Shown here one piece after another: positions 45,073 through 61,823 of a stretch of 64,000 bases of DNA. This stretch comes from Candidatus Zambryskiibacteriota bacterium (GTDB lineage: Bacteria > Patescibacteriota > Minisyncoccia > Phycocordibacterales > WO2-35-19). The notes under the pieces were generated by a model. The model saw nothing but the letters and a program-made list of their open reading frames with translations, did no database searches and was not told where the DNA came from. The position numbers and the translations under genes were made by a program. Position 1 is the stretch's first letter, and every line of letters starts with the position of its first letter. Location: NCBI GenBank assembly GCA_048499675.1, contig JASNZL010000008.1, forward strand, positions 27-64,026, written 5' to 3'.

Positions 45073-45124
45073 AACACACCTGAAAATTCTTGTTTGAAAT
45101 GCAACTGGCGGTAATATAATTTGT

Positions 45125-46100
45125 ATGGGAAAAACAAGAATTTTCGTCCAGTTGGACGAGCATAAAAGAGACAGGATTGAAGCTCTTTTGACTCAAGGAG
45201 TGGAGAAAAAATTAATAGCTAAAATCATCGGAGTACACAAAAGCACCGTCACAAGAGAGGTACAAAAAAGAAGCAGATTGAATGGAGAATATAGAGCCAG
45301 CTCTGCGGAACACAGCTCAAATTTTGCGGAGCAACTCTAAATATCAAGGCATGAAAATCGAGAGGCATCCGAACTCCGAGGTTCATAATTTCAGAATTAA
45401 AAATATCAATCGATGGCATCGCCGGAAGAATGAGAGAAGAAAAATGGTCAGTCAGAGTTTCGAGATGCTATATACCGATGGCTTCGATCTGTTCACGGAG
45501 TAAGATATTGCAAGTATCTTTGTACCAAAAGATATCGCAAGAAACCGCATACTGATACTCCAAAGAGGCAGATCATCCCAAATATGGTCATATTCACGAT
45601 ATGCCAGGCTAATCCGGGATTTGTGACCGAAGGAGATTATCTCTTTCACCAAAGAAAATATCCAAACGGCGCTGGTATTTGTCGGTTGGAGAGAGAAACC
45701 AAACTAAAGGAATTTGGTTAAAGTTCCCTGACCGATACATACTGCGAGAGTTGGTGAGAAAATTACAATGAAAACATCATTCATGTTATGATTTGACCAA
45801 GGTGGAGAAAACCTCTGAGAGCATGAAAATTCAGCATGAAGACATATTTTTGCATCCTGGCATCTCCGAGGCAGAAACCCTTCATTGAGTCCAGCATCGG
45901 ATTATGTGAAGATATTTTGGCCCAAGGGAACTAATTTGAAAAAAGTATCAAAAGAAGAATTCCAAGAAAAATTGGAAATCTTAAACAACAACAGAAAAAC
46001 GCTTCGTTACCGAAGCGCCAATGAAGCAGCGAGAGAGTGTGGTATCATTCATGGCAATTAGCAACTCCAGTTGCATTTCACCCCAGAATTTACAACCTCC
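45125..46100 (+). pseudogene. IS30-family transposase remnant, frameshifted/degraded, higher GC than surroundings
   Basis: N-terminal HTH QGVEKKLIAKIIGVHKSTVTREVQKRS characteristic of IS30 transposases; downstream reading frame broken into several short ORFs. Confidence 0.5.
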
Positions 46101-46197
46101 TTTCTGGGATATTTATAGCATGATCTAATAACAAATCAAATTAGTAATTTGATTTTATATGGTTTTTATAGTATATTTTGTTGTTGAAGTTATTTAT

Positions 46198-46271
46198 CCG
46201 CCCGTAGCTCAGTCGGTAGAGCAGCTCCCTTTTAAGGAGATGGTCGTAGGTTCGATTCCTACCGGGCGGAC
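46198..46271 (+). tRNA. tRNA-Lys, anticodon UUU
   Basis: acceptor CCGCCCG/CGGGCGG, D-arm GCTCAGTCGGTAGAGC, anticodon loop CTTTTAA, T-arm GTAGGTTCGATTCCTAC. Confidence 0.8.
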
Positions 46272-46272
46272 A

Positions 46273-46540
46273 AGCGTTAAAAAAATCAGAACTGCTTCTG
46301 ATTTTTAGCTTGTCCGAGGCGGAGCGATTTTTTTGTTTTGCGAAGCAAAGGCAAAAACCGCGAGCCGGGTGAGAAGCGAATATTTGGAGCTTCGCAAGAC
46401 CTTTGATAATTTTTATGAGTGTTGCGAGTAAAAATAGAAAAGGTGTACAGGTTCTGTAAGAACCGCGAGATTTTTCCGTCAGGAAAAATACTTGTGACGA
46501 CAAAAGCGTTAAAAAAATCAGAACTACTTCTGATTTTTAA
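46273..46540. repeat. two 36-40-bp direct repeats (terminator-like hairpin AATCAGAACTNCTTCTGATT) bracketing a ~190-bp segment that contains a conserved element shared with 56955-57050
   Basis: AGCGTTAAAAAAATCAGAACTGCTTCTGATTTTTA at 46273 and 46505; inner segment 46369-46464 is ~90% identical (reverse complement) to 56955-57050. Confidence 0.6.
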
Positions 46541-46557
46541 ATTTATACACTTTCTAA

Positions 46558-46962
46558 CTAAAGTGGTAAATCAATTGCAAAAGCGCCAGCTCCGGAGAAG
46601 AGGAGGGATAGTGTGATCGCTAAAATTAAAACATAGAAAACAAAATTTCTTTTTAGAATTGTTGGGTCTTTGTACTCAACGTAAGCTTCGGCAAAAGTAA
46701 GAAGTGCCAAAACAAGAGCGGCTATCTGAGTATAATAACCCAAGAGAAACATAACACCGCCAACAAATTCAATTGCCCCAAAAATTTTTACAGCAATTTT
46801 TGGATTTGGGATGTTTAATGTCGCAAGAGAAACTATCCATCTTTCTTTTTCTCCTTTAAAAGCAAGAAGCCCGAGGTTTACAAATATAAAACCAACAACT
46901 ACTCTTAGTATAAAAGGGGAGAGTAGTCCGTATGTAAGTAATTCTGGGAAAGGATTGAGCAT
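46558..46962 (-). CDS. DoxX-family membrane protein
   Basis: four TM helices; LLSPFILRVVVGFIFVNLGLLAF pattern. Confidence 0.65.
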   Translation of the reverse strand: MLNPFPELLTYGLLSPFILRVVVGFIFVNLGLLAFKGEKERWIVSLATLNIPNPKIAVKIFGAIEFVGGVMFLLGYYTQIAALVLALLTFAEAYVEYKDPTILKRNFVFYVLILAITLSLLFSGAGAFAIDLPL

Positions 46963-47062
46963 ATGATTTAAATTATTCTAATTAACCTAATTTCTAATTA
47001 ATCTAATAGGTACTTGTAAATTGGGATTTTTTTAGAATAATTAGAGTAATTATACACAATAA

Positions 47063-47590
47063 ATGAAAGTTTCAAAAGGAAAAAAGGATGTTGTTGTAAT
47101 TCTGAACAACATAAGGAGTAATGAGAATGTTGGCTCTATATTTAGGACGGCAGACGCTTTTTGTGTTTCAAAAATATATCTATGTGGTTATACACCTGCT
47201 CCGCTGGATAGGTTTGGAAGAGAGAACAAAGGTCTAACTAAAGCATCGCTTGGCGCGGAGAAGATGGTTGTTTGGGAAAAGGTTGAAGATATGAAGGAGT
47301 TGATTAAACAATTAAAAATTGAAGGATATAAAATTGTCGGGATAGAACAAGATACCAATTCGTTAAATATAGAATCTTTTAATTCTAAAATCGTAACTCA
47401 TTACTCGTTACTCGGTTTAATATTTGGCAACGAAGTAGATGGTCTTAATGAAGAGGAACTAAAACTCTGCGACTATATAGTAGAAATACCAATGAGAGGA
47501 AAATTAAAAAGAGATAGGGGAGCAAGTAAAATAAACAAAGAATCCCTAAATGTTGCCGTAACAGCAGGGATAGTATTGTCTAGTATATAA
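47063..47590 (+). CDS. SpoU/TrmH-family RNA 2'-O-methyltransferase, with a short in-frame heptamer-repeat insertion (IVTHYSLL)
   Basis: NVGSIFRTADAFCV, LIFGNEVDGL motifs; insertion at 47390-47415. Confidence 0.75.
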   Translation: MKVSKGKKDVVVILNNIRSNENVGSIFRTADAFCVSKIYLCGYTPAPLDRFGRENKGLTKASLGAEKMVVWEKVEDMKELIKQLKIEGYKIVGIEQDTNSLNIESFNSKIVTHYSLLGLIFGNEVDGLNEEELKLCDYIVEIPMRGKLKRDRGASKINKESLNVAVTAGIVLSSI

Positions 47591-47967
47591 AAGAGATTAA
47601 TTTCTTAGCATAAAATAGAAAGACATAATATTTATTTCGAAAATTTTAAATTTTAAATTCTAAACATAATTTTAAAAATACCAAATTACAGTATCCAAAT
47701 TACAAACAATACACAAATAACAAAATCTAAAATTTAAAGATTTAGGATTTAAGAGTTTGTTTCCCCCTTCGCTAAAGCTTCGGCGGGACAAGTCGGATTT
47801 CGGATTTAGGATTTAGAATTTTAGTTAAGCTTTTATACGATTTGTGAGTAGCTTTATAAACTTTTTACCTTCAAACTTTCTAACTAATATATTCGTGTTA
47901 TTCGTGTGCATTCGCCCGCCTGCAACGTGTATGCGATAGCATTGCGGGCAGGTATATTGGTGTCGCG

Positions 47968-48930
47968 TTAGTATTTTATAGTCGCTACTACGAGCCCATT
48001 TTCGTCATGTAAATTTATGACATCATTTTTGGTTCTCCATAACGTACCAAATCTACCTAGATAAACCCTATAAATATTTCCCGGGAAATCGGTGTCCCCA
48101 AAATGGGTAGCTACGCACATATTGTAGTTAATCTGAGTGGTTAAGTATGTTTTGCATGAAGTTGTAACAGTGTCAGGCAAATCTCTAATGAACTCATTAT
48201 CTATTGTTCTACATCTACCTATTCTTTCAATAATCTTTACACACTCATCGTGTCTATCTGGAATGGATGAAAATAATGGGAGATTTTCGTCTTTCGCACG
48301 TGGGCACTGTAGAGGTAATCTTGGGTAAAAAGTGCGGTTTTCTTCAAAATAACCAGTACACTTGTTTGTTCTAAAAGAGATACCGATTGGAGAAAATCCT
48401 TTGGTTACGATGGCCTTATCTCCTTTTTGCAAAACAATGTCACTTTCTGTTTTTGTATTTGGAAAAGGTAAAAGTGATGCTCTACCAATCATTGCGTAAT
48501 TTCCTGTAACTTCACTCCTAAAATACCAGCCAGTAATATTTATCGTTTCAGTTATTTTGAGATTTGTAGACAATGTTAAATATTCTTTGCTTGGGTCACT
48601 TTGCCTAACCCCAGAAATATTGGACATTCTTATTTTGCCATAATATGGCGACCTCTCTTTGGGTACTACTTGCTTCGATATGTTTCTTTCCAGTTTTTGA
48701 AGATCTCTTTCTATTTTTTTTATCTCGTCTGCAAGTACTTTATTTGAAGTTTCTCCAAGATTTGTTCCGGAACTTGTATTGCTTCGTCCGACAGAGGAAG
48801 ACCCTTCTGTAGAAGCAGTTTTGCCCGAGCTTGTCTGTCTGTCACTCGAGCTATTTTTGATTGGTCCATAAGCAAGACCAACTACGATTATTAAAACTAA
48901 TATTACAAATATAGGTGTTTTGTCTTCCAT
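47968..48930 (-). CDS. N-terminally anchored Ser/Thr-rich and Cys-containing extracytoplasmic protein; unknown
   Basis: MEDKTPIFVILVLIIVVGLAYGP anchor; no family recognised. Confidence 0.45.
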   Translation of the reverse strand: MEDKTPIFVILVLIIVVGLAYGPIKNSSSDRQTSSGKTASTEGSSSVGRSNTSSGTNLGETSNKVLADEIKKIERDLQKLERNISKQVVPKERSPYYGKIRMSNISGVRQSDPSKEYLTLSTNLKITETINITGWYFRSEVTGNYAMIGRASLLPFPNTKTESDIVLQKGDKAIVTKGFSPIGISFRTNKCTGYFEENRTFYPRLPLQCPRAKDENLPLFSSIPDRHDECVKIIERIGRCRTIDNEFIRDLPDTVTTSCKTYLTTQINYNMCVATHFGDTDFPGNIYRVYLGRFGTLWRTKNDVINLHDENGLVVATIKY

Positions 48931-49059
48931 CCCGTAGTGAAAAATGGCATTGCTTTAAAAGCAGGTGCTCATTTTTGTTTTTATTGTTGGTAATTTAAAC
49001 ATAATCAATTTAATCCATACTTACATACTACACTTTTGATGCCATTTTCTACTACGGGA
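48931..49059. repeat. 130-bp TIR element copy B (reverse orientation on + strand), abutting the start codon of the 47968..48930 gene
   Basis: CCCGTAGTGAAAAATGGCATTGC ... GATGCCATTTTCTACTACGGG; ~90% identical to copy A. Confidence 0.75.
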
Positions 49060-49106
49060 CCATCCCGTTAGAAGTATAAAATTATACAATTGAAAATAAA
49101 TTTTCT

Positions 49107-49973
49107 CTAACTATACTTTATTTGGTGTATGGGACAGAAGTGAGAACTACGTCCTTTTATCACCATTCTCTCTATTATACCCGAGCATCCGTTTTTTGGA
49201 CACTCTGCCCCTTTTTTGCCATAAACCTTGTGAAAATTTTGAAAACCACCTTTTTTGCCAAAAGCATTGCGATAATCTGATTTAGAATCGCCTCCATGCT
49301 TAATTGAAAGTTTTAATATTGTTAGCATAGCTTTAAATATTTCTATAAATTTATTTTCTGGAATTTTTTCACTCTTTGACGCGGGGTGTATACTAGTTTG
49401 CCAAAGTATTTCATCTGAATAAATATTACCAATTCCAGCAATGGTGTTTTGGTCAAGTAGACTTGATTTAATTGGCCAATTTTTCTTTCTATGAATCAGC
49501 TCAAAAAGTTTTTTTGAATTTAATTTTGGATGGAAAGGGTCAATACCGAGTTTTCCGAGTGTTTCGTGCAAATGATTTTGATCCGTTTTTGAAATAATGA
49601 CAGAAGCAAATTTTCTCAAATCTGAAAGTAGTAAATAGTGATTATTTGAAAGTGTGAAAATGAGGTGAATATATTTTTCATCAGAGAAATCTTTTTTATA
49701 CATAAGGCACCCTGTCATTTTCATATGCACCACGATTGTATGGTCAGTGCTTAAATTTATTAAAATATTTTTACCTCTTCTTTCTACACTTTTAATTTTT
49801 GAACCCTTAGTAATTTTTCGGAACTTATCAAAATATTTTTTGTTCTTTATGTTTTGTCGATTGTTATATTTTGAACCAATATAAAAATCCGACCAGACAT
49901 CCTTAATTGTCTTGCCAATAACGACACTTTTCAAACCTTCTACGGTTGTATGTACTTCGGGTAATTCAGGCAT
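49107..49973 (-). CDS. mutM: formamidopyrimidine-DNA glycosylase (Fpg/MutM/Nei family)
   Basis: N-terminal MPELPEVHTTV (catalytic Pro2/Glu3), H2TH, C-terminal zinc finger CPKNGC...CPIHQ. Confidence 0.9.
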   Translation of the reverse strand: MPELPEVHTTVEGLKSVVIGKTIKDVWSDFYIGSKYNNRQNIKNKKYFDKFRKITKGSKIKSVERRGKNILINLSTDHTIVVHMKMTGCLMYKKDFSDEKYIHLIFTLSNNHYLLLSDLRKFASVIISKTDQNHLHETLGKLGIDPFHPKLNSKKLFELIHRKKNWPIKSSLLDQNTIAGIGNIYSDEILWQTSIHPASKSEKIPENKFIEIFKAMLTILKLSIKHGGDSKSDYRNAFGKKGGFQNFHKVYGKKGAECPKNGCSGIIERMVIKGRSSHFCPIHQIKYS

Positions 49974-50038
49974 GGAATAGTTTAGAGCTTACAGCTTTTA
50001 GCTTAGAGTGTAAACAAACCAAAAATTTCTCAAAACTT

Positions 50039-51337
50039 TTAGCTATTACCTAAAACCTTCTTTAGTTCTTCACGAGCAACATACGCATCGTCCCAAGGAG
50101 TTTTTTTACCGTTGGCTTCCATAATATAAGGGTCAGTGCCTTTACCTGTAATCAAAACAGCAACTCTGTTTTGGTTATCCCGCGAAGCTCCATTTTTTGG
50201 AGCGAAGCGAAACGCCTTCAGAATCGCGGTCCGAATCGCAGTTCGTCTATCCATTATAATTTCTGTCGGTTTGTTTTTTATACCTTTTTTTATATCATCC
50301 ACGATTTTTACAGGGTCTTCATCATACGGGTCTTCATTGGTTAAAATAATTTGTTCACAATATTTGTCTGCAAGTCGTCCCATCTCAGGTCTTTTCCATG
50401 TGTCTCTACCGCCCCCAGTATTTCCCAAAATACAAATTGTTTTGTGTGTTTTATAGGTTTCGTATACTGCTTTGAGTGAGTCGGGTGTGTGAGCATAATC
50501 AACAACAACATCAAAATTTTGTCCTATATCTACTTTTTCCATTCTGCCTCTTATAAACTGCATATTTTCCAAACCTTTCTTAATTATCTCGTCCTGTATT
50601 CCAAAAAATCTTGCACAAGCTATTGCGCCAAGCATATTTGAAACGTTAAATATTCCTGGGAGTTTGGAATGAATCACAACTTTGCCTATCTGAAAAACAG
50701 AACCTTTTTCATCTGCTTTGACAGCGGTTGCGTCTTTGAGAGAGTAGGGGATTTTGTGGTCTGCAGAAACCTCTAAAAACTTTTCTCCTTCTTTATCGTC
50801 TATGTTTGCAATTATGCAAGTATCCCCTTTGACTTTTTTTGTTAACTCGCGTGCAATATTTAATTTGGCTTCTCTATAATTTTCGTAAGAACCATGAGAT
50901 TCGATGTGTTCCTTTGCAAGATTTGTAAATATAAGAGCGTTTGGGTATATAAATCTGTGCCTGAATTGTTTTGATCCTTCACTTGTCATTTCCATAACAA
51001 CATGAGTACAACCCGCATCTAAACTTCTCTTTAGAAAATTTTGTAAGAAAAATCTCCCCGGCATTGTCATTTTAAAAAGGTTTCTTTCTTCTTTTTCGCC
51101 AATTTTAAAACGAAGTGTGCTTGCGAGAGCGGTTTTGTATCCAGCTTCCTCAAAAATCGCATTTACTATTTCTGTTGTTGTTGTTTTGCCTTTTGTACCG
51201 GTTATACCAATTACAACCATTTTTTTAGAAGGGAAACCAAATTTAATTGCTCCAAGAAGTGCAAGTAAAAAGTGGTAGCTAGGCTGAAAAAAACTAAATA
51301 TCTTTTTTGGTATTATTTTTTTTAAAATGTTAAGCAT
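50039..51337 (-). CDS. Mur ligase family enzyme (MurE-like UDP-MurNAc-tripeptide synthetase)
   Basis: P-loop GITGTKGKTTTTEIV, DYAHTPDSL. Confidence 0.7.
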   Translation of the reverse strand: MLNILKKIIPKKIFSFFQPSYHFLLALLGAIKFGFPSKKMVVIGITGTKGKTTTTEIVNAIFEEAGYKTALASTLRFKIGEKEERNLFKMTMPGRFFLQNFLKRSLDAGCTHVVMEMTSEGSKQFRHRFIYPNALIFTNLAKEHIESHGSYENYREAKLNIARELTKKVKGDTCIIANIDDKEGEKFLEVSADHKIPYSLKDATAVKADEKGSVFQIGKVVIHSKLPGIFNVSNMLGAIACARFFGIQDEIIKKGLENMQFIRGRMEKVDIGQNFDVVVDYAHTPDSLKAVYETYKTHKTICILGNTGGGRDTWKRPEMGRLADKYCEQIILTNEDPYDEDPVKIVDDIKKGIKNKPTEIIMDRRTAIRTAILKAFRFAPKNGASRDNQNRVAVLITGKGTDPYIMEANGKKTPWDDAYVAREELKKVLGNS

Positions 51338-51539
51338 ATTTAAATTTAAAATGTAAATATAAAAATTAAAAATGACAATTTAAAATGGAAAATATTTAAA
51401 CCCTAAATTATACTTTTTTGCTATTTTATATTCTTGCCTGTGACTTTTCATTTTGACTTTTAAATTTATAATTTAATCGTACCTCGTACCTCGCCTTCTC
51501 AATTAGTGTCATTCGTTTTCATTTGTAATTTGTGTCGTG

Positions 51540-52106
51540 TTATTGACCTAAATTTTTTAAAATATATTTTATTTTTTCGTTTGTACCTTCCAAATCTTTT
51601 GGTAATTGTTTGATTGTTTCTTGAATATCTCTTTCACGATAACCTAATGATTTAAGAGCTTCAAATACATCCACATCTTCGCTAGTCCTGCTTTCACCTT
51701 TTCTGGTTGTAATTAGTTTTCCATTCAGTTCCAAAACAATTTTCTCCGCTGTTTTTCTGCCAATACCTGAAATTTTGGTAAGTGATGAGGTGTCGCCAGT
51801 ACCAACCGCCTCTTCAATTGATTTTACTCCTGCAACAGAAAGTATGGCTAAACCAGATTTCGGCCCAACTCCAGAAACAGTAATCAAAAGCTCAAAAATC
51901 CTTAGTTCCTCTTCAGTTTCAAAACCATATAAATCAATTGAATTTTCTCTGACCGCCGTGTGGGTCCAAAAGTTTGCTTCCTCTCCTGTTCTTAATTTTG
52001 CCAAATAAGAAGGTGTGCTATATATAATAAAACCAATATTGCCAGCCTTTACAATAGCTTTTGCACCCTTTAAATCAAAAATTTTACCTGTTATGTGTCC
52101 AAACAT
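51540..52106 (-). CDS. ruvA: Holliday junction DNA helicase RuvA
   Basis: MFGHITGKI..., HhH motifs LLITVSGVGPKSGLAIL, C-terminal domain. Confidence 0.9.
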   Translation of the reverse strand: MFGHITGKIFDLKGAKAIVKAGNIGFIIYSTPSYLAKLRTGEEANFWTHTAVRENSIDLYGFETEEELRIFELLITVSGVGPKSGLAILSVAGVKSIEEAVGTGDTSSLTKISGIGRKTAEKIVLELNGKLITTRKGESRTSEDVDVFEALKSLGYRERDIQETIKQLPKDLEGTNEKIKYILKNLGQ

Positions 52107-52259
52107 AAAAGCTTAGAGCTAAAAGCTTAGAGCTTGAAGCTGTATATAATATAGCAAAACTGAGGTTATTTTCATCTTATTGCTATTTTTTTATATTTAT
52201 GTTAGATTTTACACGTCATTAATTTTAAATTTTGATTTTTTAATTTTGATTTTTATAAC

Positions 52260-52517
52260 ATGCCAATAATCAAATCAGCAAAAAAGGCCCTAAGATCTTC
52301 AAAAAAGAAGAGAATTTTCAATTTGAAAAGAAAAAACGAAATGAACAAGATTGTTAAGGAATACAAAAAGCTTGTAATTTCAAAATCAGAAAAAGAAGCT
52401 AAAGATTTGTTACCAAAACTTCAGAAAGCAATAGATAAAGCCTCAAAGAGGGGAGTAATAAAGAAAAACACAGCATCTCGCAAAAAATCCCGCCTAATGA
52501 AGAAACTTTCAAAATAA
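52260..52517 (+). CDS. rpsT: 30S ribosomal protein S20
   Basis: MPIIKSAKKALRSSKKKRIFNLKRK. Confidence 0.9.
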   Translation: MPIIKSAKKALRSSKKKRIFNLKRKNEMNKIVKEYKKLVISKSEKEAKDLLPKLQKAIDKASKRGVIKKNTASRKKSRLMKKLSK

Positions 52518-52529
52518 TTCAAATCAACA

Positions 52530-52558
52530 AAAAAACAGCAGATGCTGTTTTTTTGTTG
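52530..52558 (+). terminator. rho-independent terminator after rpsT
   Basis: AAAAAACAGCAGATGCTGTTTTTTTG; the identical sequence recurs at 54028-54056. Confidence 0.8.
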
Positions 52559-52655
52559 TCCACATTTCTATAGGATTTATTTTAGTTAATTAAATACAAT
52601 ATAAGCATTAATAATATTATAAATCTAACTATGAATTTTTTTAAAGTATTGATTT

Positions 52656-54005
52656 TTGCAGGTATTGCAACATCAATTTTTTTTTGGTGTGTTTAATACA
52701 TCGTCTGCAAATACGGTTCCGCCCCCATTTATTAGTGGTACAGAAGTTAAGGGCGGGCCAAGTATGACAAGTTATATAGGAGAAGAGCTTATTATAAATG
52801 GTACAAATTTATTTACTTTTTGTTGTAAATATGACACTGGAATTTACATAAATAGCAAAGGTCCATTGTCATTAAACGAAAAAATTATTTCTGAGAATAG
52901 AATATCATTTATTGTACCGAATAATTTAGAAGAAGGTAATTCATTTAGTTTGTACATAACAACAAACTCAGGAATAAGTAATATTGTAAACGTTAAAGTG
53001 ATACCAAAATTAGTAAGTAATCAGCTACCAAAACCTTATATATCAAGCATAGAGCCAAAATCAGCAAAAGTGGGCGAATTAGTAACTGTGCGAGGTTCTA
53101 ATTTGTTTGGCAACTCGGTATATCTAAATGATTATTCTGTAAGTTCTGATCCTGTAAACTATAGTTATGACGCTTCTGGCAACAGTCTTGTTTTTACAGT
53201 TCCTAAAGGTTATGACGTAGGAAGATATAATCTGAAAGTTGAGCAAAGAGTTGTTGGTGGGTTTAGCAACTCACTCCCTTTTGAAATTATTGCACAAACA
53301 ATAAATAAACAGCCCGTCATCTCTAGTGTAGAATCAAAAGTAATTGGTGCTGGTAATGTAGTGTCAGGAGAAAAAGCTTATATTCACGGTTCTGGTCTAT
53401 TGGGGCCTTTAACAATACAACTTGGTACGATTGAACCAAAGTATGTATACACTAGAGGAACATCTGATACTTATGCGGAGTTTGTTGTTCCGTATTATAC
53501 TCAAGGAATAAATCTAGACATAAAGGTTACTAATTCAACCAATCTATCTAGTAGTCCTTACCCAGTAAGAGTGTCTACAACATATAGTTCTGCTGGTACT
53601 ACATCAGTTGCGCCAGTTATGGTTGACGCAAGCAACTCTGATTTGAATCAGGTCATTAAATCACTCTTAGAGCAAATTCAGGCATTACAAGCTCAATTAA
53701 ATGAGAGAAACAAACAGACAACTAACGCAACAAATCAATTTAATAATACAAACATAAATGCATCTTGTTTGATTATTAACCGCGATTTAGCCTACAGAGA
53801 AAAGGATGGGTGGAACACGTCAAATATCACTGGTTTGCAAGATTTTCTTCAATCATCAGGTTACCTAAATTCAGAACCAACTGGTTATTTTGGTCTGATG
53901 ACATTAGACGCAGTTAAGAGATTCCAGAGTGCCCACTCTATAAATTCTACTGGATTAGTTGGTCCAATGACTAGAGCCAAAATACAAGAGTTAAGTTGTA
54001 GATAG
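52656..54005 (+). CDS. surface protein with three IPT/TIG-like repeats, a coiled-coil linker and a C-terminal peptidoglycan-binding domain. The apparent signal peptide lies in another frame upstream (ATG 52631), separated by a T9 tract.
   Basis: repeated segments YISSIEPKSAKVGELVTVRGSNLFG / VISSVESKVIGAGNVVSGEKAYIHGSGLLG; C-terminal DFLQSSGYL...GYFGLMTLDAVKRFQ (PG_binding_1-like). Confidence 0.65.
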   Translation: MQVLQHQFFFGVFNTSSANTVPPPFISGTEVKGGPSMTSYIGEELIINGTNLFTFCCKYDTGIYINSKGPLSLNEKIISENRISFIVPNNLEEGNSFSLYITTNSGISNIVNVKVIPKLVSNQLPKPYISSIEPKSAKVGELVTVRGSNLFGNSVYLNDYSVSSDPVNYSYDASGNSLVFTVPKGYDVGRYNLKVEQRVVGGFSNSLPFEIIAQTINKQPVISSVESKVIGAGNVVSGEKAYIHGSGLLGPLTIQLGTIEPKYVYTRGTSDTYAEFVVPYYTQGINLDIKVTNSTNLSSSPYPVRVSTTYSSAGTTSVAPVMVDASNSDLNQVIKSLLEQIQALQAQLNERNKQTTNATNQFNNTNINASCLIINRDLAYREKDGWNTSNITGLQDFLQSSGYLNSEPTGYFGLMTLDAVKRFQSAHSINSTGLVGPMTRAKIQELSCR

Positions 54006-54027
54006 TTTATTCATTAGATTATCAAAC

Positions 54028-54056
54028 CAAAAAACAGCAGATGCTGTTTTTTTGGT
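54028..54056 (+). terminator. rho-independent terminator (second copy of the rpsT terminator sequence)
   Basis: AAAAAACAGCAGATGCTGTTTTTTTG. Confidence 0.8.
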
Positions 54057-54070
54057 TGTAATTAATTATC

Positions 54071-55822
54071 CTATCGGCCACCACCACCGCCACCACCGCC
54101 ACCCCCTCCGGAAAAACCACCCCCTCCAGAGCCACCAGAGCTTGAACCATAACTCGAGTTTGCATTAACTGTATTTGAGAAACTACTCATCATTGATGCA
54201 AAAGTGACCGTGTTTATCGTTTGATTATGACTTGAGTACCAACTAGGTCTTGAATGGGTAATTTCGTAATAATGCCCAAGTTCTTTGTTCCATTCTTTTT
54301 CTTTGTTGAACAATACAGCATAGGGAAGTACTTTTTCGTATAATTTTATTAGTTTTGCAGTATCTCTTGTGTCTATAACAACTTTTTCTGCACCAGTTGG
54401 ACTTTGTAAAACTCGCATTCTTTCTGTCTCAGCCATACTTATGTAGTGCTTAAATCCTTTGAGATAGCGACGCAACTCCAAACCTTTGTCTGTGAGTGGT
54501 TTAAGATGCTTTGATGCTCCGTATAGAGTAACAGCCATAATCAAAAATACGAAATTTAGTGATAAGGCGCCACACACAACTAAACCCAAAGCCCCGTATT
54601 TTAATTTTTTTGTTTTGGATTCATCCACTCTTCTTAATTCATATCTCAGGACAAGTAATTCATCCAATTTCTTTTTATTATCACTGATTCTTTTTCGAAA
54701 ACTTGTGTTATTGCGCAAAGATTTTAGAGCCAGTCTCTGTCCTGTTTGTGGAATTCCATCAAAAAGATCACTAAGCATCTCTTTTTCTTCTTCAAAGAGA
54801 TTATTTAAATCATTTTTTATTTCTATTTCATATTCGGCTTTCTTCCAAAAAGTTTTCTCTTTTAACTCAATTATCTTAATATAATCGCGCACTGCCAAAT
54901 CCAAAAGAAAAGCTGTAAGAACAGAATGAGCACTATTTAGTAAACTGGCAGATGTTATTACACTGACCCCGTCTGGAGGGAAATATTCAGTAACGATTGT
55001 CCCTAATTCCTTGTTTCTATTATGAGACTTGTAATAGAAGTATAAAGACCAAAAAATGATTAATACTCCAGTCATTTGAGCAGTAAGTTGGATTAAAGGT
55101 GAAGCAAAAATAGCGAGTATTTTTTCTATTAAAGTAGGTTTGTAACCGGCAAAAGTTTCGGGATTGAAACCAACTGCAATAGTTAAATTTTCATACGGTA
55201 AAAGATTGGTTGTGCTTGCGGTCAAACCATGAAAAATGGGCGATAGTGTACAGGTTTCAGTTCCGCCACTTGCTCCACGATAACAAGCTACAGATCCAGT
55301 GAGTGATGGTATTAATGATTCTGCTATGTTTATTTGAACATTTAGATTTTCTATAGGAACCCTCCAACCCGTGCCGTTTGTGTCCCAGTAAAATTCATCT
55401 TGGTTTGTATTAGGAAAATATTTTGTAACATCTCGTAAGGTGTAGGTGATTGTATATGTTTGTGGGCCAAGGAGATATTCATCTGTCCCTGTTTCAATAA
55501 CATAATGGTCGCCTTTTGAATATTCGGCATATATTGGTTCTGGTTGGCCGTTGCGTTCTAGAGATATTAATGAAAAGGAGAGCGAATGCCCATCATATTG
55601 ATCTGGGATTTCCCGCACTAAACCCTTGTTTTGGGGAAAAGTGGGGAAGTCTGCAGTGATACGCTCTACCACTCGTAGAGTAGAGTGTCCTTCATTGTCT
55701 TTATCCAAAAAATACTCAATTTCAAATTGACTGATTGAAAAATTATTTACATCAGCCATCACCAAAGAAGCCTCACTAAATAGAGAGAAGATTAGTAGAC
55801 AAATAATCAAAAATTTTTTCAT
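54071..55822 (-). CDS. DUF2207-like membrane protein with Gly-rich C-terminal tail
   Basis: signal peptide, large extracytoplasmic N-domain, TM cluster, C-terminal SSSGGSGGGGFSGGGGGGGGGGGR. Confidence 0.6.
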   Translation of the reverse strand: MKKFLIICLLIFSLFSEASLVMADVNNFSISQFEIEYFLDKDNEGHSTLRVVERITADFPTFPQNKGLVREIPDQYDGHSLSFSLISLERNGQPEPIYAEYSKGDHYVIETGTDEYLLGPQTYTITYTLRDVTKYFPNTNQDEFYWDTNGTGWRVPIENLNVQINIAESLIPSLTGSVACYRGASGGTETCTLSPIFHGLTASTTNLLPYENLTIAVGFNPETFAGYKPTLIEKILAIFASPLIQLTAQMTGVLIIFWSLYFYYKSHNRNKELGTIVTEYFPPDGVSVITSASLLNSAHSVLTAFLLDLAVRDYIKIIELKEKTFWKKAEYEIEIKNDLNNLFEEEKEMLSDLFDGIPQTGQRLALKSLRNNTSFRKRISDNKKKLDELLVLRYELRRVDESKTKKLKYGALGLVVCGALSLNFVFLIMAVTLYGASKHLKPLTDKGLELRRYLKGFKHYISMAETERMRVLQSPTGAEKVVIDTRDTAKLIKLYEKVLPYAVLFNKEKEWNKELGHYYEITHSRPSWYSSHNQTINTVTFASMMSSFSNTVNANSSYGSSSGGSGGGGFSGGGGGGGGGGGR

Positions 55823-56040
55823 AATTCTATTGTACAGGAACTAAGAAATGAGAGAAAGGTTTGTTGGTGTAATTTACTAAAATTGGTATTAACAAAATCT
55901 TACTATTGAAACATTTTTATAATATTTGGGTGAACAAAAAACTTTTATAAATTAGCATCCTGACAATAAATTCTGTTTCAATATATAAAAAAAGAGGGGG
56001 GGCGAGTTTCAAACACAACGCCCCCGCTCTGGGTGTACTA

Positions 56041-56553
56041 CTATTGAAGCATGAAATCCCTTTTTATGCTCCCCCTGGGAATGAAGAACTCGTACTTTTT
56101 TGTCGGATAGTCCAGACCAACCAGTAGTAAGTTTGGATTCACAAACTGGTAGGTGTAAGTCTTGAGTTCTCCCACCTTTCTTTCTTCATCTTCAAAAACC
56201 GTGACATTACCCTCAATTTCAATTTTCCTCGGCCGATAGCCCAACCCGACCGCTTCATAGAAGAAGTAGTGCTGGGTTGTGTCAATACTGCCGGTACCGA
56301 GGTAGAATTGCCCACTGAGACCATCGCTCCCACGTAGGCTCACTAGCCCTGTTGTTTCGGGTCCAGTCCAGTGTTTGGGCACCGCAAGACCAATGACTGA
56401 CGCGAAGCCGATGCCAAAAAAGAACACAATCGACGCGAAGATCCCAAAGAAAAATGTTGCAGCGCAACGGTCAAGGAAACCGTCTGCCTGTCCGTACATG
56501 TCCTTCCATGCAAAGACGACAAAAATCAAAACAAAAAGAAGTGGCCAAAGCAT
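56041..56553 (-). CDS. membrane protein, unknown; lies at the AT-rich to GC-rich transition
   Basis: two N-terminal TM helices. Confidence 0.45.
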   Translation of the reverse strand: MLWPLLFVLIFVVFAWKDMYGQADGFLDRCAATFFFGIFASIVFFFGIGFASVIGLAVPKHWTGPETTGLVSLRGSDGLSGQFYLGTGSIDTTQHYFFYEAVGLGYRPRKIEIEGNVTVFEDEERKVGELKTYTYQFVNPNLLLVGLDYPTKKYEFFIPRGSIKRDFMLQ

Positions 56554-56811
56554 ACTTTATCTCCTGTTTGGAAAGTTTTATATCGAGTTACGAGCGCTCG
56601 ATATTGGTCCTTAACCATAATAGCATACTACATATTAAAAGTCAATGTTTTATAAAATCATTAAATAGTGTCTTTTGGGCCACTATTTCTTCTTGGCTAA
56701 ATAATTTAGATACTTTTTACTCAGAAGAATCTAACTTATTTGTTATTGAGTCTTGGTATTAATTAATTATTACAACGCCGTGCCTCTCTGCTAGTAAAGC
56801 ACCTTGCTTGC

Positions 56812-57113
56812 TCGAGGGCACAAAATATTTTGTTTTTTGTGCCCTCGGTAGGAGTATTTCCCTCGACTCAAAATTTTTTCAGTCAAAAAATTTCGGTCTG
56901 GGCACCGGCTCATGGAAATTTATTTCTAAAAATTTCACATTCCGCCGTTCGATTTCTTACAGAAACTGTACACCTTTTCTATTTTTATTTCGCAAAACTC
57001 ATAAAAATTATCAAAGGTCTTGCGAAGCTTCAAACATTTGCTTCTCACCTACACGCAAGCAAAGCAGTTTGCTTGCTCGAGAGCACAAAATATTTTGTTT
57101 TTTGTGCCCCACT
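56812..57113. repeat. two 10-13-bp-stem hairpins (CGAGGGCACAAAA..TTTTGTGCCCTCG) bracketing a ~230-bp segment that contains the conserved element 56955-57050
   Basis: hairpins at 56812-56848 and 57077-57113; inner conserved block matches 46369-46464 (reverse complement). Confidence 0.6.
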
Positions 57114-57663
57114 CGGGTCTCGGACGTTGGTATACCAAGCAGTATAAGGGTTTTCGGGAGGATTCCCAAGAGTTGAGATGATGCCTCCGCATAGGGGTCA
57201 GTTTTCACCAAACAGGCGCTTGTGCCTTCAAAAACAGAATGAGACAAATGGGACACTCCTTCACGGGTATTTGGCAGTATCTCAAATGCCAACAAATGCC
57301 AATTTTCTGACACCAAAAAGTGACAAAAGTGACACTCTTTGGACACTTTTTCCGTGTCACTTTTTGCTAAAATCTGATGCGAGACAGAGACAGACGAGAC
57401 ACAGGTTAGAGGTATGCCACGAATGTCTCATCTGGAACCCAAATGGCTAAAAAAAAGGATATTTTACCGCCAATGTTACACCATGTGACACCAAAACAGA
57501 TGTGCATGTGTGTCACTTTTTCGTATTTGGTGGCTTTACAGCCACTTTTCCCGGCACTGCGTCGCTCTTGTGCTAAGTATGAAATTATTGTATTTTACGA
57601 CCTAGAGAGTGACGCCTGTCACAAAACCACAAACAGCACATTCACAAACGAAAGGAGACAGAG

Positions 57664-58809
57664 ATGGAAAAGCTCTTAAATCTTGAAGAACTCAGTAGCC
57701 GTCTCGCGACTGTCGACACGATGATCATGCAGCTCATCATGCGTCGCATGGAGCTCGCTGAGCAGGTTGGAAAATACAAACGCCAAAAGGGCGAGCGGAT
57801 TTTCCGGGCAGATATCGAAGATAGGCGTATCGATGCGATCAGGAAATGGGCTGCGACACACCACCTGAATCCGCATTTCGCCGAATCGGTCTTGTACGCA
57901 CTCATCAACGAGTCATGCAAGCTGCAAATGATCCGACTCCAAGAAGAGTCGCTGGAATCAAGTGAGCCTCAGACCGAAGACCAGTGGTATGAGAAGCTCA
58001 AGCGAAACCTTCTTATCCTCACCGAACGATGGTGCAGTACCTACGACTCAAGCTACGAAAACAGCTACTTCGCGACAAAGGCGTACCTGCGGTACGAGCA
58101 TGAACTGCTCACTCGAGAAATCCAACAATTGACTGATACAGAGCTCATGCTCGACCTTGGGTGCGCGACTGGCAGGATGACGTTCCAATGCCACGATGTG
58201 TTCAGGCGCGTCATGGGGTACGACATCAGCCAGCACATGCGGATGATGGCAAACCAGCTTGCTGAAAGCAAGAACTTACACTCGAAGGTCGCTTTCGAGT
58301 GCACGGACATTGAGGATGGCATCCCAATGCTCGATACTTCCGCATCGTTCGTCGTGATGAACCTTGGCACGGCCAGCGACATTCGGGGCATCGGTAAGGT
58401 GATAGATGAAACGCTTCGGGTGCTCAAGCCCGGAGGTCGATTCTTCTTCTCTTTCTACAATCGAGATGCTCTCGTTTATCGCTGGGAGTTCCTGCCGTGG
58501 GAAGCGGGGTTGGCCGCATCAATCAACATCCACCGCGACTCGCTCGACGTTCACTCGAAAAATGACGACCAGGTGGAGGAAGTCATTCCGGTCTACGCGC
58601 GAGCGTATACGTGGGACGAGGTAATGTCGCTATTCTCCGCTCGAGGAGTGGAGGTGTCGCTCACGACATATCCTACCATCAGCGCCATTCTCCCTCACGA
58701 GTTGTTTACCAAACAGCTCGACGTGCAAGAATCGGTCATCGCGATTGATAATGCGCTTGCTGATACTTCAATGGGTGCCTACATCATTGCGACAGGCGCA
58801 AAGCCTTGA
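57664..58809 (+). CDS. fusion protein: N-terminal AroQ-type chorismate mutase-like domain + C-terminal class I SAM-dependent methyltransferase domain
   Basis: N-terminus LEELSSRLATVDTMIMQLIMRRMELAEQVGKYKRQKGERIFRADIEDRRIDAI fits the AroQ pattern L..LR..ID.ID..L..LL..R..L...IG..K; later LDLGCATGRMT (motif I) and VLKPGGRFFF (post II). Confidence 0.6.
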   Translation: MEKLLNLEELSSRLATVDTMIMQLIMRRMELAEQVGKYKRQKGERIFRADIEDRRIDAIRKWAATHHLNPHFAESVLYALINESCKLQMIRLQEESLESSEPQTEDQWYEKLKRNLLILTERWCSTYDSSYENSYFATKAYLRYEHELLTREIQQLTDTELMLDLGCATGRMTFQCHDVFRRVMGYDISQHMRMMANQLAESKNLHSKVAFECTDIEDGIPMLDTSASFVVMNLGTASDIRGIGKVIDETLRVLKPGGRFFFSFYNRDALVYRWEFLPWEAGLAASINIHRDSLDVHSKNDDQVEEVIPVYARAYTWDEVMSLFSARGVEVSLTTYPTISAILPHELFTKQLDVQESVIAIDNALADTSMGAYIIATGAKP

Positions 58810-58831
58810 TGTCACGTTGGATAACACCTAC

Positions 58832-58862
58832 AACGCGCGAGCTTACCACTCGCGCGTTTTTC
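58832..58862 (+). terminator. rho-independent terminator
   Basis: AACGCGCGAGcttaccaCTCGCGCGTTTTT. Confidence 0.8.
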
Positions 58863-58989
58863 TATCGAATCAATTACATACAATTGACAAAGATAACCCC
58901 ACTGTGATAAATTACAGGTGTTGTTCATTTCAGTATATAAAACCCATATCCGATTCCCTTGAGTAATCAAGGGGTTGGGGTCGGATAGT

Positions 58990-59243
58990 TTTGCGGAGTA
59001 ATTCGCGAAACAGGGTGGTCTCTGCATAAGTGGAGACCCGGCTTCCTCCGTAACCATAGGAAAACCGAAATCGGTCGAAAGACCAGAGCCGGTATAAGTC
59101 CCGAGAGACATCAAGGGAAAAGTAAGGTGGCACCGCGGAAACCCGCCCTTACGATATGAGCAGTTTTGCTTGTATCGTGAGGGCGGTTTTTCATTGGGAA
59201 AAATCGCATAGTTCTTTCACATCAACCAAAGGAGAAATATCTC
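58990..59243 (+). promoter_or_regulatory. ~250-nt structured 5' leader with mutually exclusive antiterminator/terminator helices (riboswitch- or attenuator-like) upstream of the GNAT-like gene
   Basis: terminator ACCCGCCCTTACGATA...TATCGTGAGGGCGGTTTTT (59142-59191) overlaps alternative helix GTAAGG...CCCTTAC (59122-59152); several further local helices (GGTCTC..GAGACC; CCCGGCT..AGCCGG). Confidence 0.4.
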
Positions 59244-59936
59244 ATGAAGCTCTCTGAATACGCAACTAAGAATCAACTTGTCACAAAGGCGGGCGTGTAT
59301 AGCGCCTACCACTTAATGCCTGAGCTACTTTCTAATGAGGTTAAAGACTATCTCTTTAACCTTGTCTATCCAGTTGCTCAAAACGCCTTCGGGCAACAGC
59401 ATTCTGAGGAGTTTGCTCACGATGTCAGAACGCATGTTCTTGACCATTCAAATATTTTGATTGTTCAAGACCATACTGGTGCGGTTATCGCATTTCGAGT
59501 CTGGGATATTCTCCACGGCATCGAAAGAGACATCGTCTATCTTGCTGGTATGTGTGTTACTTATGAATACCAGAAGATCGGTCTAGGAAAGGCGTTGATA
59601 CAGGCTGCAATCGATATTGCGCAAGTATCTCACCCGAATTTGGGCTATGTTGTACTACGTACCCAAAATTGGGCAATGCAGAAGAGTTTGTCTGCTATTG
59701 CTGCAGAATCTGGTGTGTACAAGAAGTTTGGCGACACCAACATTGATGAAGACATGCAAGCCGCCGTTAAGATAGTAGCGGATAAAATCAATGATTCCTG
59801 CATCGTGCCTTCTGAGCTTGTGTCGCGAAAAGTCTATGGCAGTAGCTTATATGGCTCGGCGCATAACTATCAGAACGGCTTCGTTGGGCTAGATGTCTCT
59901 AATGGTGATGCAGCTTACTGCGTTTGGCGACGATGA
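59244..59936 (+). CDS. GNAT-family acetyltransferase-like protein
   Basis: motif A-like YQKIGLGKALIQAAI; beta-strand HTGAVIAFRVWDI. Confidence 0.5.
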   Translation: MKLSEYATKNQLVTKAGVYSAYHLMPELLSNEVKDYLFNLVYPVAQNAFGQQHSEEFAHDVRTHVLDHSNILIVQDHTGAVIAFRVWDILHGIERDIVYLAGMCVTYEYQKIGLGKALIQAAIDIAQVSHPNLGYVVLRTQNWAMQKSLSAIAAESGVYKKFGDTNIDEDMQAAVKIVADKINDSCIVPSELVSRKVYGSSLYGSAHNYQNGFVGLDVSNGDAAYCVWRR

Positions 59937-60013
59937 GTCGATCACAAACTAGAGCCATTCTAAGAAACTCGGGTGGCTCTATTTTTTTACAGGGAAATAT
60001 ATATAATTTTACT

Positions 60014-60823
60014 ATGTTACAGAGCATTAAAAAAATACTTATTGTTGGCAGTACGCATGGACACGAAAGGATAGGTCTTGCTGTTATCGAAGAGTTAAAA
60101 AAACTAAATATACCGAACGATCAACTCCGTTTTGAAATTGGCAACCCGAGAGCTTCAGAGAAAAATATTCCCTTTATCGACTCAGATCTCAATCGCATCT
60201 TTCCTGGTAATCCGAATGGTACATACGAAGAACGGCTGGCATTTGAACTATTACCAAAGATCAGGGATGTTGATTTGGTGATAGACATTCACTCAACCAA
60301 TACCACTGATTTATCTGAAAACTCAATGCTTATCGTCACAAAATATGATACCGTCACCAGAGATATTGTTGGCACTATCAATCCTCCGAAAGTTTTGGTG
60401 ATGAAATATAAAAGTGATAGCGCCCTCATTTCGCAAGCACGAATTGGTGTGGCATTTGAGTATGGGAAAGACACGAGCGAATCCGTATTACAAGCTACCC
60501 TGTTCGACATTGCTGAAGTTTTGATTGCCTGCGGATTCATTTCTAGAAATCCATATACAACCACAAAACATAATGAACGTACTGACGCTTTTGAGGTATA
60601 CGATTCATATAAAAAAGACTTTCTCGGGAAGTTTACACTTGCACCCGAAATAAAAAATTTCCAATTAGTCACACAAGGTTCTTTTTTGGGCGTAACCGAT
60701 TCTGGCGTAGAAGTACTTGCAGATGAAAGTTTTGTCCCGATTCTGTTTGGAGAAAACAGATATACGGAAATATTGGGTTTTAAGGCAAAGAAAATAGCGC
60801 CACCCACGAAGGAATGGCGCTAG
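60014..60823 (+). CDS. succinylglutamate desuccinylase / aspartoacylase (AstE/AspA) family zinc hydrolase (start moved to internal ATG)
   Basis: ILIVGSTHGHERIG...DSDLNRIFPG...DLVIDIHS matches the family zinc-binding/catalytic motifs. Confidence 0.7.
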   Translation: MLQSIKKILIVGSTHGHERIGLAVIEELKKLNIPNDQLRFEIGNPRASEKNIPFIDSDLNRIFPGNPNGTYEERLAFELLPKIRDVDLVIDIHSTNTTDLSENSMLIVTKYDTVTRDIVGTINPPKVLVMKYKSDSALISQARIGVAFEYGKDTSESVLQATLFDIAEVLIACGFISRNPYTTTKHNERTDAFEVYDSYKKDFLGKFTLAPEIKNFQLVTQGSFLGVTDSGVEVLADESFVPILFGENRYTEILGFKAKKIAPPTKEWR

Positions 60824-60836
60824 GTTGTTTGCGTGA

Positions 60837-61799: not shown

Positions 61800-61823
61800 C
61801 TGAACCTCCTGTGGTTTGAGTGT

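Follow-up and report, generated by a model that had tools for sequence, protein, structure and literature searches.

A family of modular, hairpin-rich units resides in the 3′ flanks of transfer RNA (tRNA) and transfer-messenger RNA (tmRNA) genes, at times also in those of further genes with high expression, and carries at a fixed point an optional core block of about 93 nucleotides (nt). The family was met in a stretch of 64,000 nt of contig JASNZL010000008.1 from a Candidatus Zambryskiibacteriota bacterium, the window in the following, in which an original prediction had pointed to a 100-mer repeated at 46 and 57 kb; this 100-mer is the core. It is a conserved four-helix structured element which shows the compensatory substitutions that serve as the criterion for structured RNA, and the family, previously undescribed, is widespread among and specific to candidate phyla radiation (CPR)-type bacteria. 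With moderate confidence, and judged from sequence only, we read the element as a structured RNA module that would come from the trailers of tRNA and tmRNA precursors and that would also duplicate and recombine locally.

The core folds into four covarying helices

The two copies at 46 and 57 kb (copies A and B), originally described as about 90% alike, are indeed inverted copies of each other, aligning over 67 nt at 90% identity (46368-46434 versus 56983-57049) and in a second, equally inverted block over 34 nt at 97% identity (46429-46462 versus 56954-56987). A 32-mer and a 34-mer from within the core each occur exactly twice in the window, where shuffled sequences are expected to hold none. 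Both loci are thus real, but they are not the only ones: with a covariance model, R1, built from 17 copies, at least four confident copies are found in the window, including those at 1091-1196 and 4916-5037, plus a weak fifth at 5108-5211.

RNAalifold, applied to an alignment made with MAFFT only, finds 26 pairs, nine of them with double changes, which form three hairpins, namely the small P1 with loop YTACA, the long P2/P3 and P4. In an alignment of 26 matches to R1, on which the pair statistics were taken, standard pairs fill 96.5% of the cells compared with 46-58% when the partners are slid, compensatory changes on both sides are seen in 18 of 24 pairs and none of 500 shuffles reaches any of five measures; the fit of this alignment to the model biases it towards the structure, a concern countered by the same helices arising from the MAFFT-only alignment. 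The most diverged copies hold P2 and P4 with different sequence, for example ACTCATTG/CAATGAGT replacing ACCTTT/AAAGGT, and the core at the tmRNA locus of the window keeps both helices through wholly different, compensating sequences. Variation is limited to the covarying pairs and two loops, and the unpaired linkers are nearly invariant. As to the specificity of R1, about 450 kb of unrelated loci, all containing the exact anchor word, gave a best match of E = 0.8.

On the non-folded strand the P1 loop has an invariant TTAC, right after which two independent inserts have entered at one and the same point, 22 nt long in the related genome L019/L028 (L numbers denote the related loci and contigs) and 32 nt long in the window core at 4916-5037. 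Also invariant are TACAG and CTGTA, which flank the 3′ strand of P1 (e.g. window 56957-56973) and could form an alternative 5-base pair (bp) hairpin excluding P1; this pairing option hints at a switch between conformations or at a palindrome to which a dimer binds. Pairing of the P3 loop (TTCGC) with GCGAA of P4 as a pseudoknot was rejected, as the variants show no covariation. Readings of the unit as a tRNA-like cloverleaf, as tmRNA-like or as a T-box, group I intron or signal recognition particle RNA were likewise rejected, judged by eye only; by eye no acceptor-type closing helix with covariation was found in the unit, and Rfam covers those families.

The open reading frames (ORFs) over the repeats (46141-46503 and 56808-57176/56830-57147) run across tRNA-Lys and the hairpins and are artefacts without support as protein genes, since substitutions are compensatory in helices and not codon-wise. 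Their shared peptide is, as had been proposed, due to the DNA repeat only.

Wobble pairs indicate that the sense strand of the upstream gene is the one that folds

On the strand in which the element had originally been read, the non-Watson-Crick cells of the core helices comprise 13 A·C/C·A compared with two G·T, and the basal helix of the hairpin arm A, which follows the core, holds an invariant A·C in nine of nine coreless units, plus three more. Every A·C on this strand is a G·U on the tRNA-sense strand, on which single pairs show the series A-U / G·U / G-C. Because the A·C cells become G·U wobbles there, the folded strand is concluded to be the sense of the upstream tRNA or tmRNA, which is the + strand for the 46-kb and tRNA-Arg loci and the − strand for the 57-kb and tmRNA loci.

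Three of the four confident window copies lie less than 300 nt behind the window's only three tRNA/tmRNA loci (chance about 1e-6), and the fourth, at 57 kb, adjoins a decayed tRNA-Lys end. A co-oriented tRNA or tmRNA gene is situated 19-563 nt upstream at 11 independent loci, these upstream genes being tRNAs for Lys, Tyr, Phe, Cys, Asp, Gly, Ile and Arg as well as tmRNA. Units occupy the spacers between co-oriented tRNA genes in L005, L024 and L026. A scan for sigma-70-like promoters found none between tRNA-Lys and tRNA-Leu in L024 and none inside unit A, the unit that holds core copy A; a promoter-like site, TTGATT-17-TATATT, lies ahead of tRNA-Lys at 46149-46177. A promoter cassette, one of the functions originally considered, is not supported, given the lack of a sigma-70-like site in the core and a conservation that tracks base pairing.

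The units are modular and form tandem arrays

The 100-mer, an optional block of about 93 nt, has a set position within a larger modular unit; the features at the four window loci are as follows.

Locus at 46 kb
46198-46271, + strand: tRNA-Lys(UUU) (ARAGORN and Rfam), whose 3′ flank holds unit A
46268-46315, + strand: long hairpin of tRNA-Lys and unit A (sequence, RNAfold); 5′ strand from the last 4 nt of tRNA-Lys, GGACAAGC..., apex formed by D7a (46272-46307), 3′ strand GCTTGTCC, which opens unit A
46308-46503, + strand (inferred folded/RNA sense): unit A, a coreless L005 unit plus core according to alignment A6; tail 46308-46328, hairpin hpB 46328-46357, junction CCGCGAGCCGG 46358-46368, then the core; 3′ of the core, hairpin hpA 46470-46489 and 3′ end ACTTGTGACGAC 46490-46501
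46363-46466, + strand: core copy A with helices P1-P4 (R1, 114.5 bits, E 5e-23)
46504-46539, no strand assigned: D7b, which repeats the tRNA-Lys terminator hairpin beyond unit A

Locus at 57 kb
56790-56844, − strand: D1a, hairpin plus tail TCGAGGGCAC plus hpB, opening module of a second, truncated unit
56845-56861, − strand: decayed copy of the tRNA-Lys 3′ end, TCGGTAGGAGTATTTCC, read from the sequence (compare CGGTAGGAATCGAACC, the reverse complement of the tRNA)
56862-57054, − strand (inferred folded sense): body of unit B, with core copy B at 56950-57054
57055-57109, − strand: D1b, opening module of unit B; hpB 57055-57076, tail TCGAGAGCAC 57077-57086, then a hairpin
57104-57125, − strand: second decayed fragment resembling a tRNA 3′ end, GTGCCCCACTCGGGTCTCGGAC, read from the sequence, which borders a high-G+C island

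tmRNA locus
1047-1233, − strand: with-core unit beside the tmRNA gene; core 1091-1196, R1 match on the + strand, 74 bits
1258-1413, − strand: coreless unit in tandem with the preceding one, with exact direct repeats
1387-1448, − strand: long hairpin in which 11 nt of the tmRNA 3′ end pair with the tail of the first unit
1436-1841, − strand: tmRNA gene with tag AKNTLAKVVSPYFAVSDFDFAYARA; SmpB is encoded adjacent to it, at 2138-2581

tRNA-Arg locus
4868-5054, + strand: unit behind tRNA-Arg (4792-4867) with diverged core 4916-5037, R1 match on the − strand, 32 bits, E 4e-5
5108-5211, + strand: possible fifth core, strongly decayed, in the second unit of the tRNA-Arg array; tentative, with 13 bits and E 0.58

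In the RNA sense, the unit reads tail, hpB, CGAGSCRGG, optional core, hairpin arm A and GTGACC. In the orientation originally chosen, it starts with GGTCAC or with a reverse-complement fragment of a tRNA 3′ end, followed by hairpin arm A and by P1 and the core ending in CTCACC, the remainder being YGSCTCGYGG, hpB, a tail mimicking the tRNA 3′ end and a hairpin. Arm A of the coreless units closes GGTC...GACC with covarying inner pairs. According to alignment A6, unit A of the window equals the coreless unit of L005, with the same hpA and hpB sequences, plus a clean block of about 93 nt; both hairpins come in few sequence types which are common to distant genomes. Core copy B scores 121.4 bits with R1, and the RNA fold of unit B has a z of −7.2. 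Units measure 150-260 bp without ORFs, irregular within a range of 90-260 nt, and are found in tandem at the window tmRNA locus (two) as well as in L028 and in L026+L020 (three each).

Arrays begin with a long hairpin, and one including the gene's 3′ end was found at 14 of 18 gene ends folded. Its 5′ strand is made of the last 4-16 nt of the tRNA or tmRNA, or of the rplL stop region, its 3′ strand is the unit tail and its apex is a terminator-like hairpin, as in the window at 46268-46315 and 1387-1448. Near-perfect hairpins of 20-25 bp which include 4-16 nt of the tRNA/tmRNA acceptor strand recur in the window, L028, L025, L005, L026, L002, L009 and L022, in the last case with the same design 3′ of the rplL stop codon; such a hairpin would compete with the folding of the acceptor stem and resembles a double-strand-specific processing site. 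An inverted copy of the tRNA end is present in each tail. Such a copy cannot arrive in a pre-formed element; it was either generated at the junction or selected to lengthen the hairpin.

Each later unit in an array begins with a copy of the opening module, and the repeats that bracket the units are these opening modules: a terminator hairpin with or without tail and hpB, sometimes accompanied by a copy of the tRNA 3′ end. The terminator-like repeat pair that had been seen directly after tRNA-Lys (D7) spans 36 nt at 97% identity with one mismatch (46272-46307/46504-46539), begins one base past the end of the tRNA, has the form of an A-run/stem/T-run hairpin and is the tRNA-Lys hairpin repeated past unit A, where D7b faces the convergent DoxX gene (46558-46962, − strand). 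The hairpins bounding the 57-kb segment are also present and are longer than claimed, being part of a 55-nt direct repeat of 91% identity (D1, 56790-56844/57055-57109) with two hairpins per copy; it consists of hairpin, tail and hpB of two units in succession, and a decayed tRNA 3′ fragment stands before each. L028 displays the same pattern with a 70-nt repeat. At the tmRNA locus the exact repeats are 1047-1093/1258-1304 (47 nt) and 1204-1233/1384-1413 (30 nt), the latter combining the tmRNA 3′ end, copied in inverted orientation, with half of the terminator. At tRNA-Arg, 21 nt of the tRNA 3′ end recur as an exact direct repeat (4846-4866, 5034-5054) that brackets the unit, the second copy spanning the tRNA end from the T-loop onward and closing the unit; direct copies of tRNA 3′ ends are also found in L002 (21 nt) and L009 (three copies). 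No such repeat was met at tRNA-Lys, where the repeat begins after the tRNA, or at the rplL and rRNA-spacer loci. As repeat length and content differ at every locus, a fixed attachment (att) core or target duplication is argued against.

D7, with a stem of 11 bp between its A-run and T-run, lies below the G+C criterion of the terminator scanner, D1 has a stem without a T-run after it and comparable hairpins of L024 pass the terminator scan. Terminator function would account for the hairpins, not for the core.

A further module is common to L018 10130-10200 (23S-5S spacer) and L007 1395-1440 (interrupted copy of tRNA-Glu), a hairpin GATTTGC...GCAAATC with loop AAATCAATCGCTTCGCTCTTGA, and the family therefore has more module types than those analysed. 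Free-standing ORFs resembling homing endonucleases lie beside tRNA-plus-unit loci in L002 (4985-5614, LAGLIDADG, weak), L024 (11-718, LAGLIDADG_3) and L014 (1688-2428, T5orf172/MUG113).

Distribution and database searches

A 19-mer scan of one genome per species yielded 17 loci, of which 10 contain the whole core; all 10 are from metagenome-assembled genomes (MAGs) labelled Parcubacteria, Paceibacterota or Saccharibacteria, with four contigs from one MAG, and the other seven are chance matches within unrelated sequence. A search with a gapped pattern gave 11 metagenome contigs, all of them true copies. Among viral and plasmid sequences, an exact 15-mer anchor scan of IMG/VR hit 80 loci, none with the remaining core, R1 had no match in the 52 of these loci that were scanned, and blastn of unit B matched nothing in phage and plasmid collections; with no true copy in IMG/VR (15-mer anchor) or in those collections, a phage or plasmid origin was rejected. 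In Rfam 15, the window at gathering threshold gave the tmRNA and three tRNAs only, and scans by E-value of both loci and six related loci gave chance-level matches only, so that a known Rfam RNA family was rejected, there being no match at any threshold. A literature search found no description of the element, and a look-up of SmpB for the strain variant of the tmRNA locus showed that the protein is not on record.

Strain comparison and sequence constraint

Contig L109 is 99.3% identical to the window across SpoU-DoxX and continues with another segment after DoxX; its tRNA-Lys is the same (100%), and the hairpin, tail and hpB behind it match the corresponding parts of window unit B at 95% identity. 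This arrangement indicates that the place of unit B was formerly behind tRNA-Lys, in keeping with the decayed tRNA-Lys fragment next to D1a; a simple inversion with copies A and B as its ends would not yield the order seen and was rejected. In the syntenic relative L019/L021+L028 (PolA, holA, units, tRNA-Lys, DoxX, SpoU, Fpg) the block of tRNA and units is inverted compared with the window, and L026+L020 has three units compared with one in L024. The arrangement at the tRNA-Arg locus is unchanged in L113, a 98.9% identical strain. No clean empty site was found in the strain contigs L109, L110, L111 and L113, which show the same arrangement or a complex replacement instead. The Logan contigs L109, L110 and L111 each break off in the core, which a repeat would be expected to cause.

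The CTGTA...TCTCA block shows 83-94% identity in every pair, within as well as between genomes, with 92.7% for A versus B. Between the window and the L019/L028 genome the core block is 90% identical at the nt level, compared with 77% (nt) for the orthologous tRNA-Lys(UUU) and, in amino acids, 58.7% for PolA, 54% for DoxX, 44% for Fpg and 42% for SpoU. As variation is confined to covarying pairs and two loops and the linkers are near-invariant, each copy appears to be under purifying selection for one sequence-specific function; being more conserved than the adjacent tRNA, the core probably does something important.

A functional RNA module or a mobile repeat

The RNA-module reading is favoured because of the sense orientation, the position in spacers of co-oriented tRNA genes without detectable promoters, the tRNA-end hairpin and the extreme conservation. 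Units would be transcribed by read-through from the tRNA promoter, within the 3′ trailer of the precursor or the inter-tRNA spacer, and the long hairpin would be the processing or termination site that separates the tRNA from the unit. The released core may be a stable RNA, many invariant unpaired bases of which would contact a conserved partner, protein or RNA, and such contacts would explain why the core is conserved above its neighbouring tRNA. Arrays would grow, shrink and swap modules by local duplication and recombination, leading to copy-number and arrangement differences between strains.

Several observations weigh against this reading. Transcription, strand and processing are deduced from the DNA alone, and the strand asymmetry cannot tell RNA from single-stranded DNA (ssDNA), because G·T is also the best-tolerated mismatch in folded ssDNA. 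Many of the tRNA-unit hairpins resemble efficient bidirectional intrinsic terminators, which would limit read-through. The core in the 23S-5S spacer of L018 lies on the strand opposite to rRNA sense and breaks the orientation rule; L022 behind rplJL and L014 behind a protein gene follow protein genes, and L007 and L023 lie within partial tRNA-Glu duplications upstream of tRNA-Glu. A core that is present or absent, accretion in tandem and duplications of tRNA ends are features typical of mobile DNA, and among the loci analysed no partner protein or function was identified.

More specific, and held only tentatively, is the proposal that the core represents a new class of functional RNA, widespread in and specific to CPR bacteria and made from tRNA/tmRNA precursor trailers, either self-processing (ribozyme-like) or protein-binding and acting in tRNA 3′-end maturation or translation, or else spread by copying of target hairpins. 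The P1 loop, in RNA sense C-U-G-U-A-R-G, has the pattern of the tRNA-Tyr anticodon loop and the unit tail ties up the tRNA acceptor end in a hairpin of 20-25 bp, both of which fit a functional RNA. As for spread, the target hairpin together with an inverted piece of the tRNA end may be copied into the new junction; we know of no described bacterial element that does so.

It is possible, if doubtful, that the element is instead a selfish, non-autonomous repeat which moves as folded ssDNA (or via RNA) and targets hairpins behind highly expressed genes, its folds and loops being recognised by an enzyme acting in trans (an HUH/Y1-type transposase, a recombinase or a reverse transcriptase) and the direct repeats being insertion footprints. 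Multiple copies beside many different tRNAs, flanking direct repeats of 21, 30, 36 and 55 nt, polymorphism of copy number and arrangement between strains and the homing-endonuclease-like ORFs beside three loci speak for such an origin, as do the optional core with its sharp boundaries and its varied nesting, in arm A, after the tail (L004/L010), after a tRNA fragment or inside a partial tRNA-Glu. The folded strand is furthermore the tRNA coding strand and would be the lagging-strand template if tRNA genes are co-oriented with replication. Yet no transposase, recombinase or reverse transcriptase recurs near the copies, the neighbours of which are housekeeping genes, and neither terminal inverted repeats (TIRs) nor a target duplication of fixed length is present, repeat lengths varying by locus. 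Copies within a genome are no more alike than those of distant genomes, so that there is no sign of recent bursts, diverged copies preserve their helices by compensation instead of decaying and no vector was matched in IMG/VR (exact 15-nt anchor word) or in the phage and plasmid collections.

The 3′ ends of tRNA and tmRNA genes are classic integration sites, and the exact or decayed copies of tRNA 3′ ends from the T-loop on (21 nt at tRNA-Arg, 21 nt in L002, three in L009), together with the high-G+C island with a large serine recombinase that unit B abuts, could be taken to indicate that the units are scars of site-specific integration, namely leftover att arms with direct repeats as att cores of tyrosine or serine integrases acting at tRNA/tmRNA genes. 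This is improbable: att arms do not evolve by compensatory hairpin changes, the same core is found behind at least eight tRNA species and tmRNA with 'att' repeats that differ in sequence and length each time, some repeats contain no tRNA sequence (D7 begins past the tRNA), and units also stand behind rplL and in an rRNA spacer. No integrase adjoins any unit, and serine recombinases leave only about 2-bp cores. Even less credible is an independent small RNA gene or a promoter/terminator cassette on the strand originally read, convergent with the tRNA, although weak −10-like boxes (TATTTT, TAAAAT, GATAAT) follow GGTCAC at many unit starts (by eye), every unit ends in a hairpin on that strand and in L018 that strand has the rRNA sense. 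Against it speak the wobble asymmetry, with two G·T and 13 A·C among the core cells, and the invariant A·C of arm A; no promoter-like site passes the scan for unit A, and a start after the putative −10 would omit the 5′ strand of the covarying arm-A helix.

Of the functions originally considered, a small RNA family thus comes closest to the RNA-module reading in view of the conserved, covarying structure across CPR bacteria, but on the opposite strand and with the 100-mer as its optional core only. From the miniature integrative element at tRNA-Lys, the general link to tRNA/tmRNA 3′ ends and some tRNA-end duplications (21 nt at tRNA-Arg) are retained; flanking repeats that differ per locus (21 to 55 nt), the lack of an integrase and the identity of the repeats with the leading modules of tandem units are against it. 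A composite transposon with the two inverted copies as its ends was rejected as well: the 10.5 kb between them hold the genes for DoxX, SpoU, Fpg, Mur ligase, RuvA and S20 and cell-envelope genes, and given these housekeeping genes the pair does not bound a mobile segment.

Comparison with known systems

Like BOX of Streptococcus pneumoniae (boxA-boxB(n)-boxC), ERIC, RUP and Correia elements, the units are short, non-coding, multi-copy, intergenic and hairpin-rich, and as in BOX-type repeats they consist of few interchangeable modules in variable number, here the 'alleles' of arm A and hpB and the optional core. BOX-type repeats are so far known only within one species or genus. Unlike BOX, the present family covaries helix by helix and is about 90% conserved where proteins are 42-59% identical; it is tied to tRNA/tmRNA 3′ flanks in fixed orientation and lacks TIRs and a TA-type target duplication. 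With REP/BIME and their RAYT (TnpA-REP) and with IS200/IS605-derived elements it shares hairpins in gene 3′ flanks, a putative terminator role, arrays and one folded strand, while the units are far larger and more complex than the 20-40 nt of REP; no conserved tetranucleotide of the GTAG type was seen by eye at the hairpin foot, the invariant TTAC of the P1 loop being a tentative candidate for a cleavage tetranucleotide, and neither the window nor some 170 kb of related loci contain a gene for a RAYT/TnpA (Y1/HUH) transposase.

The proposed mode, a functional non-tRNA segment of a tRNA operon transcript, would resemble the 3′ETS(leuZ) sponge of Escherichia coli. That segment is reportedly short, unstructured and lineage-specific; in contrast, the present module comprises 100-200 nt with several helices, at many tRNA loci, and is conserved across CPR lineages. 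Genomic islands and prophages at tRNA/tmRNA genes share the location and, at some loci, the direct repeats of tRNA 3′ ends, but the inserts here measure 150-260 bp and have no integrase, their repeats vary by locus and the conserved part is a folded structure. Measured against miniature inverted-repeat transposable elements, no consistent TIR was found at unit or core ends and no fixed target duplication, the repeats of 21, 30, 36 and 55 nt each being a whole hairpin or tRNA end. No integrase lies within the units, and the only recombinase, of the large serine type, is about 6.8 kb off in the island.

Units of TIGR arrays are 36 nt long, have dual spacers and stand beside Nop-domain proteins (PMC12045711). 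With irregular units of 90-260 nt and no Tas/Cas-type neighbour, guide arrays of the TIGR or CRISPR type were rejected.

Significance and neighbouring DNA

Several copies per genome of about 1 Mb, the presence behind every tRNA/tmRNA locus of the window and a conservation above that of tRNA and proteins make the module hard to call junk. CPR bacteria (Patescibacteria) represent a large share of bacterial diversity and have tiny genomes in which many standard factors of RNA processing and ribosome biogenesis are absent; to our knowledge, very few lineage-specific RNAs are known for them. If a functional RNA, the module would be a candidate for a missing part of stable-RNA maturation or translation in these bacteria; if selfish, it would be a repeat of an unusual kind, with terminator hairpins as its targets and a reshuffling of tRNA loci as its effect. 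In practice the element breaks assemblies (Logan L109, L110, L111) and creates spurious ORFs.

The original prediction had named copies that form the ends of a known insertion sequence (IS) or transposon as what would speak against it. Directly upstream of the tRNA-Lys promoter lies a decayed IS of the IS30 family (45081-46094) with an HTH_38 N-terminus, a frameshifted body, an IS30-type C-terminus (LNNNRKTLRY) and 28-nt TIRs containing CCAGTTGCATTTCA, which is absent from the units, and an intact IS30 relative with the same repeat motif is situated upstream of tRNA-Ile in L025 (about 800-1800). The TIRs of the window pseudogene and of the intact L025 copy are unrelated to the units; a link to IS30 was thus rejected, and the copies are not such ends.

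Right after unit B the G+C content rises from about 0.33 to 0.46-0.53 in a block (57110-64000, continuing in L111) which encodes a chorismate mutase-methyltransferase fusion, a GNAT protein, an AstE/AspA-like protein, a YbaK-type tRNA-editing protein and TrpRS, and in which, according to contig L111, a large serine recombinase begins at about 63.86 kb. This block is probably an integrated foreign island beside a destroyed tRNA site. The isolated ORF 40262-40918 (218 amino acids, G+C 0.51, lipoprotein-like N-terminus) stands in low-G+C surroundings and may have been acquired separately.

In L018, the 23S rRNA match at 6213-9822 extends over 3610 nt for a model of 2925 nt and has tRNA-like calls inside (7690-7782 and 7826-7903), which makes an intervening sequence in the rRNA gene likely. 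The window further contains at 4670-4745 a tRNA-Ile whose anticodon, UAU, is rarely seen in bacteria. At two gene ends of the window (52526-52555 and 54025-54054, 97% identical) stands a palindromic terminator of 30 nt, AACMAAAAAACAGCAGATGCTGTTTTTTTG, and terminator hairpins with loops of the GCAG/CTGC type recur in the window genome and in the units.

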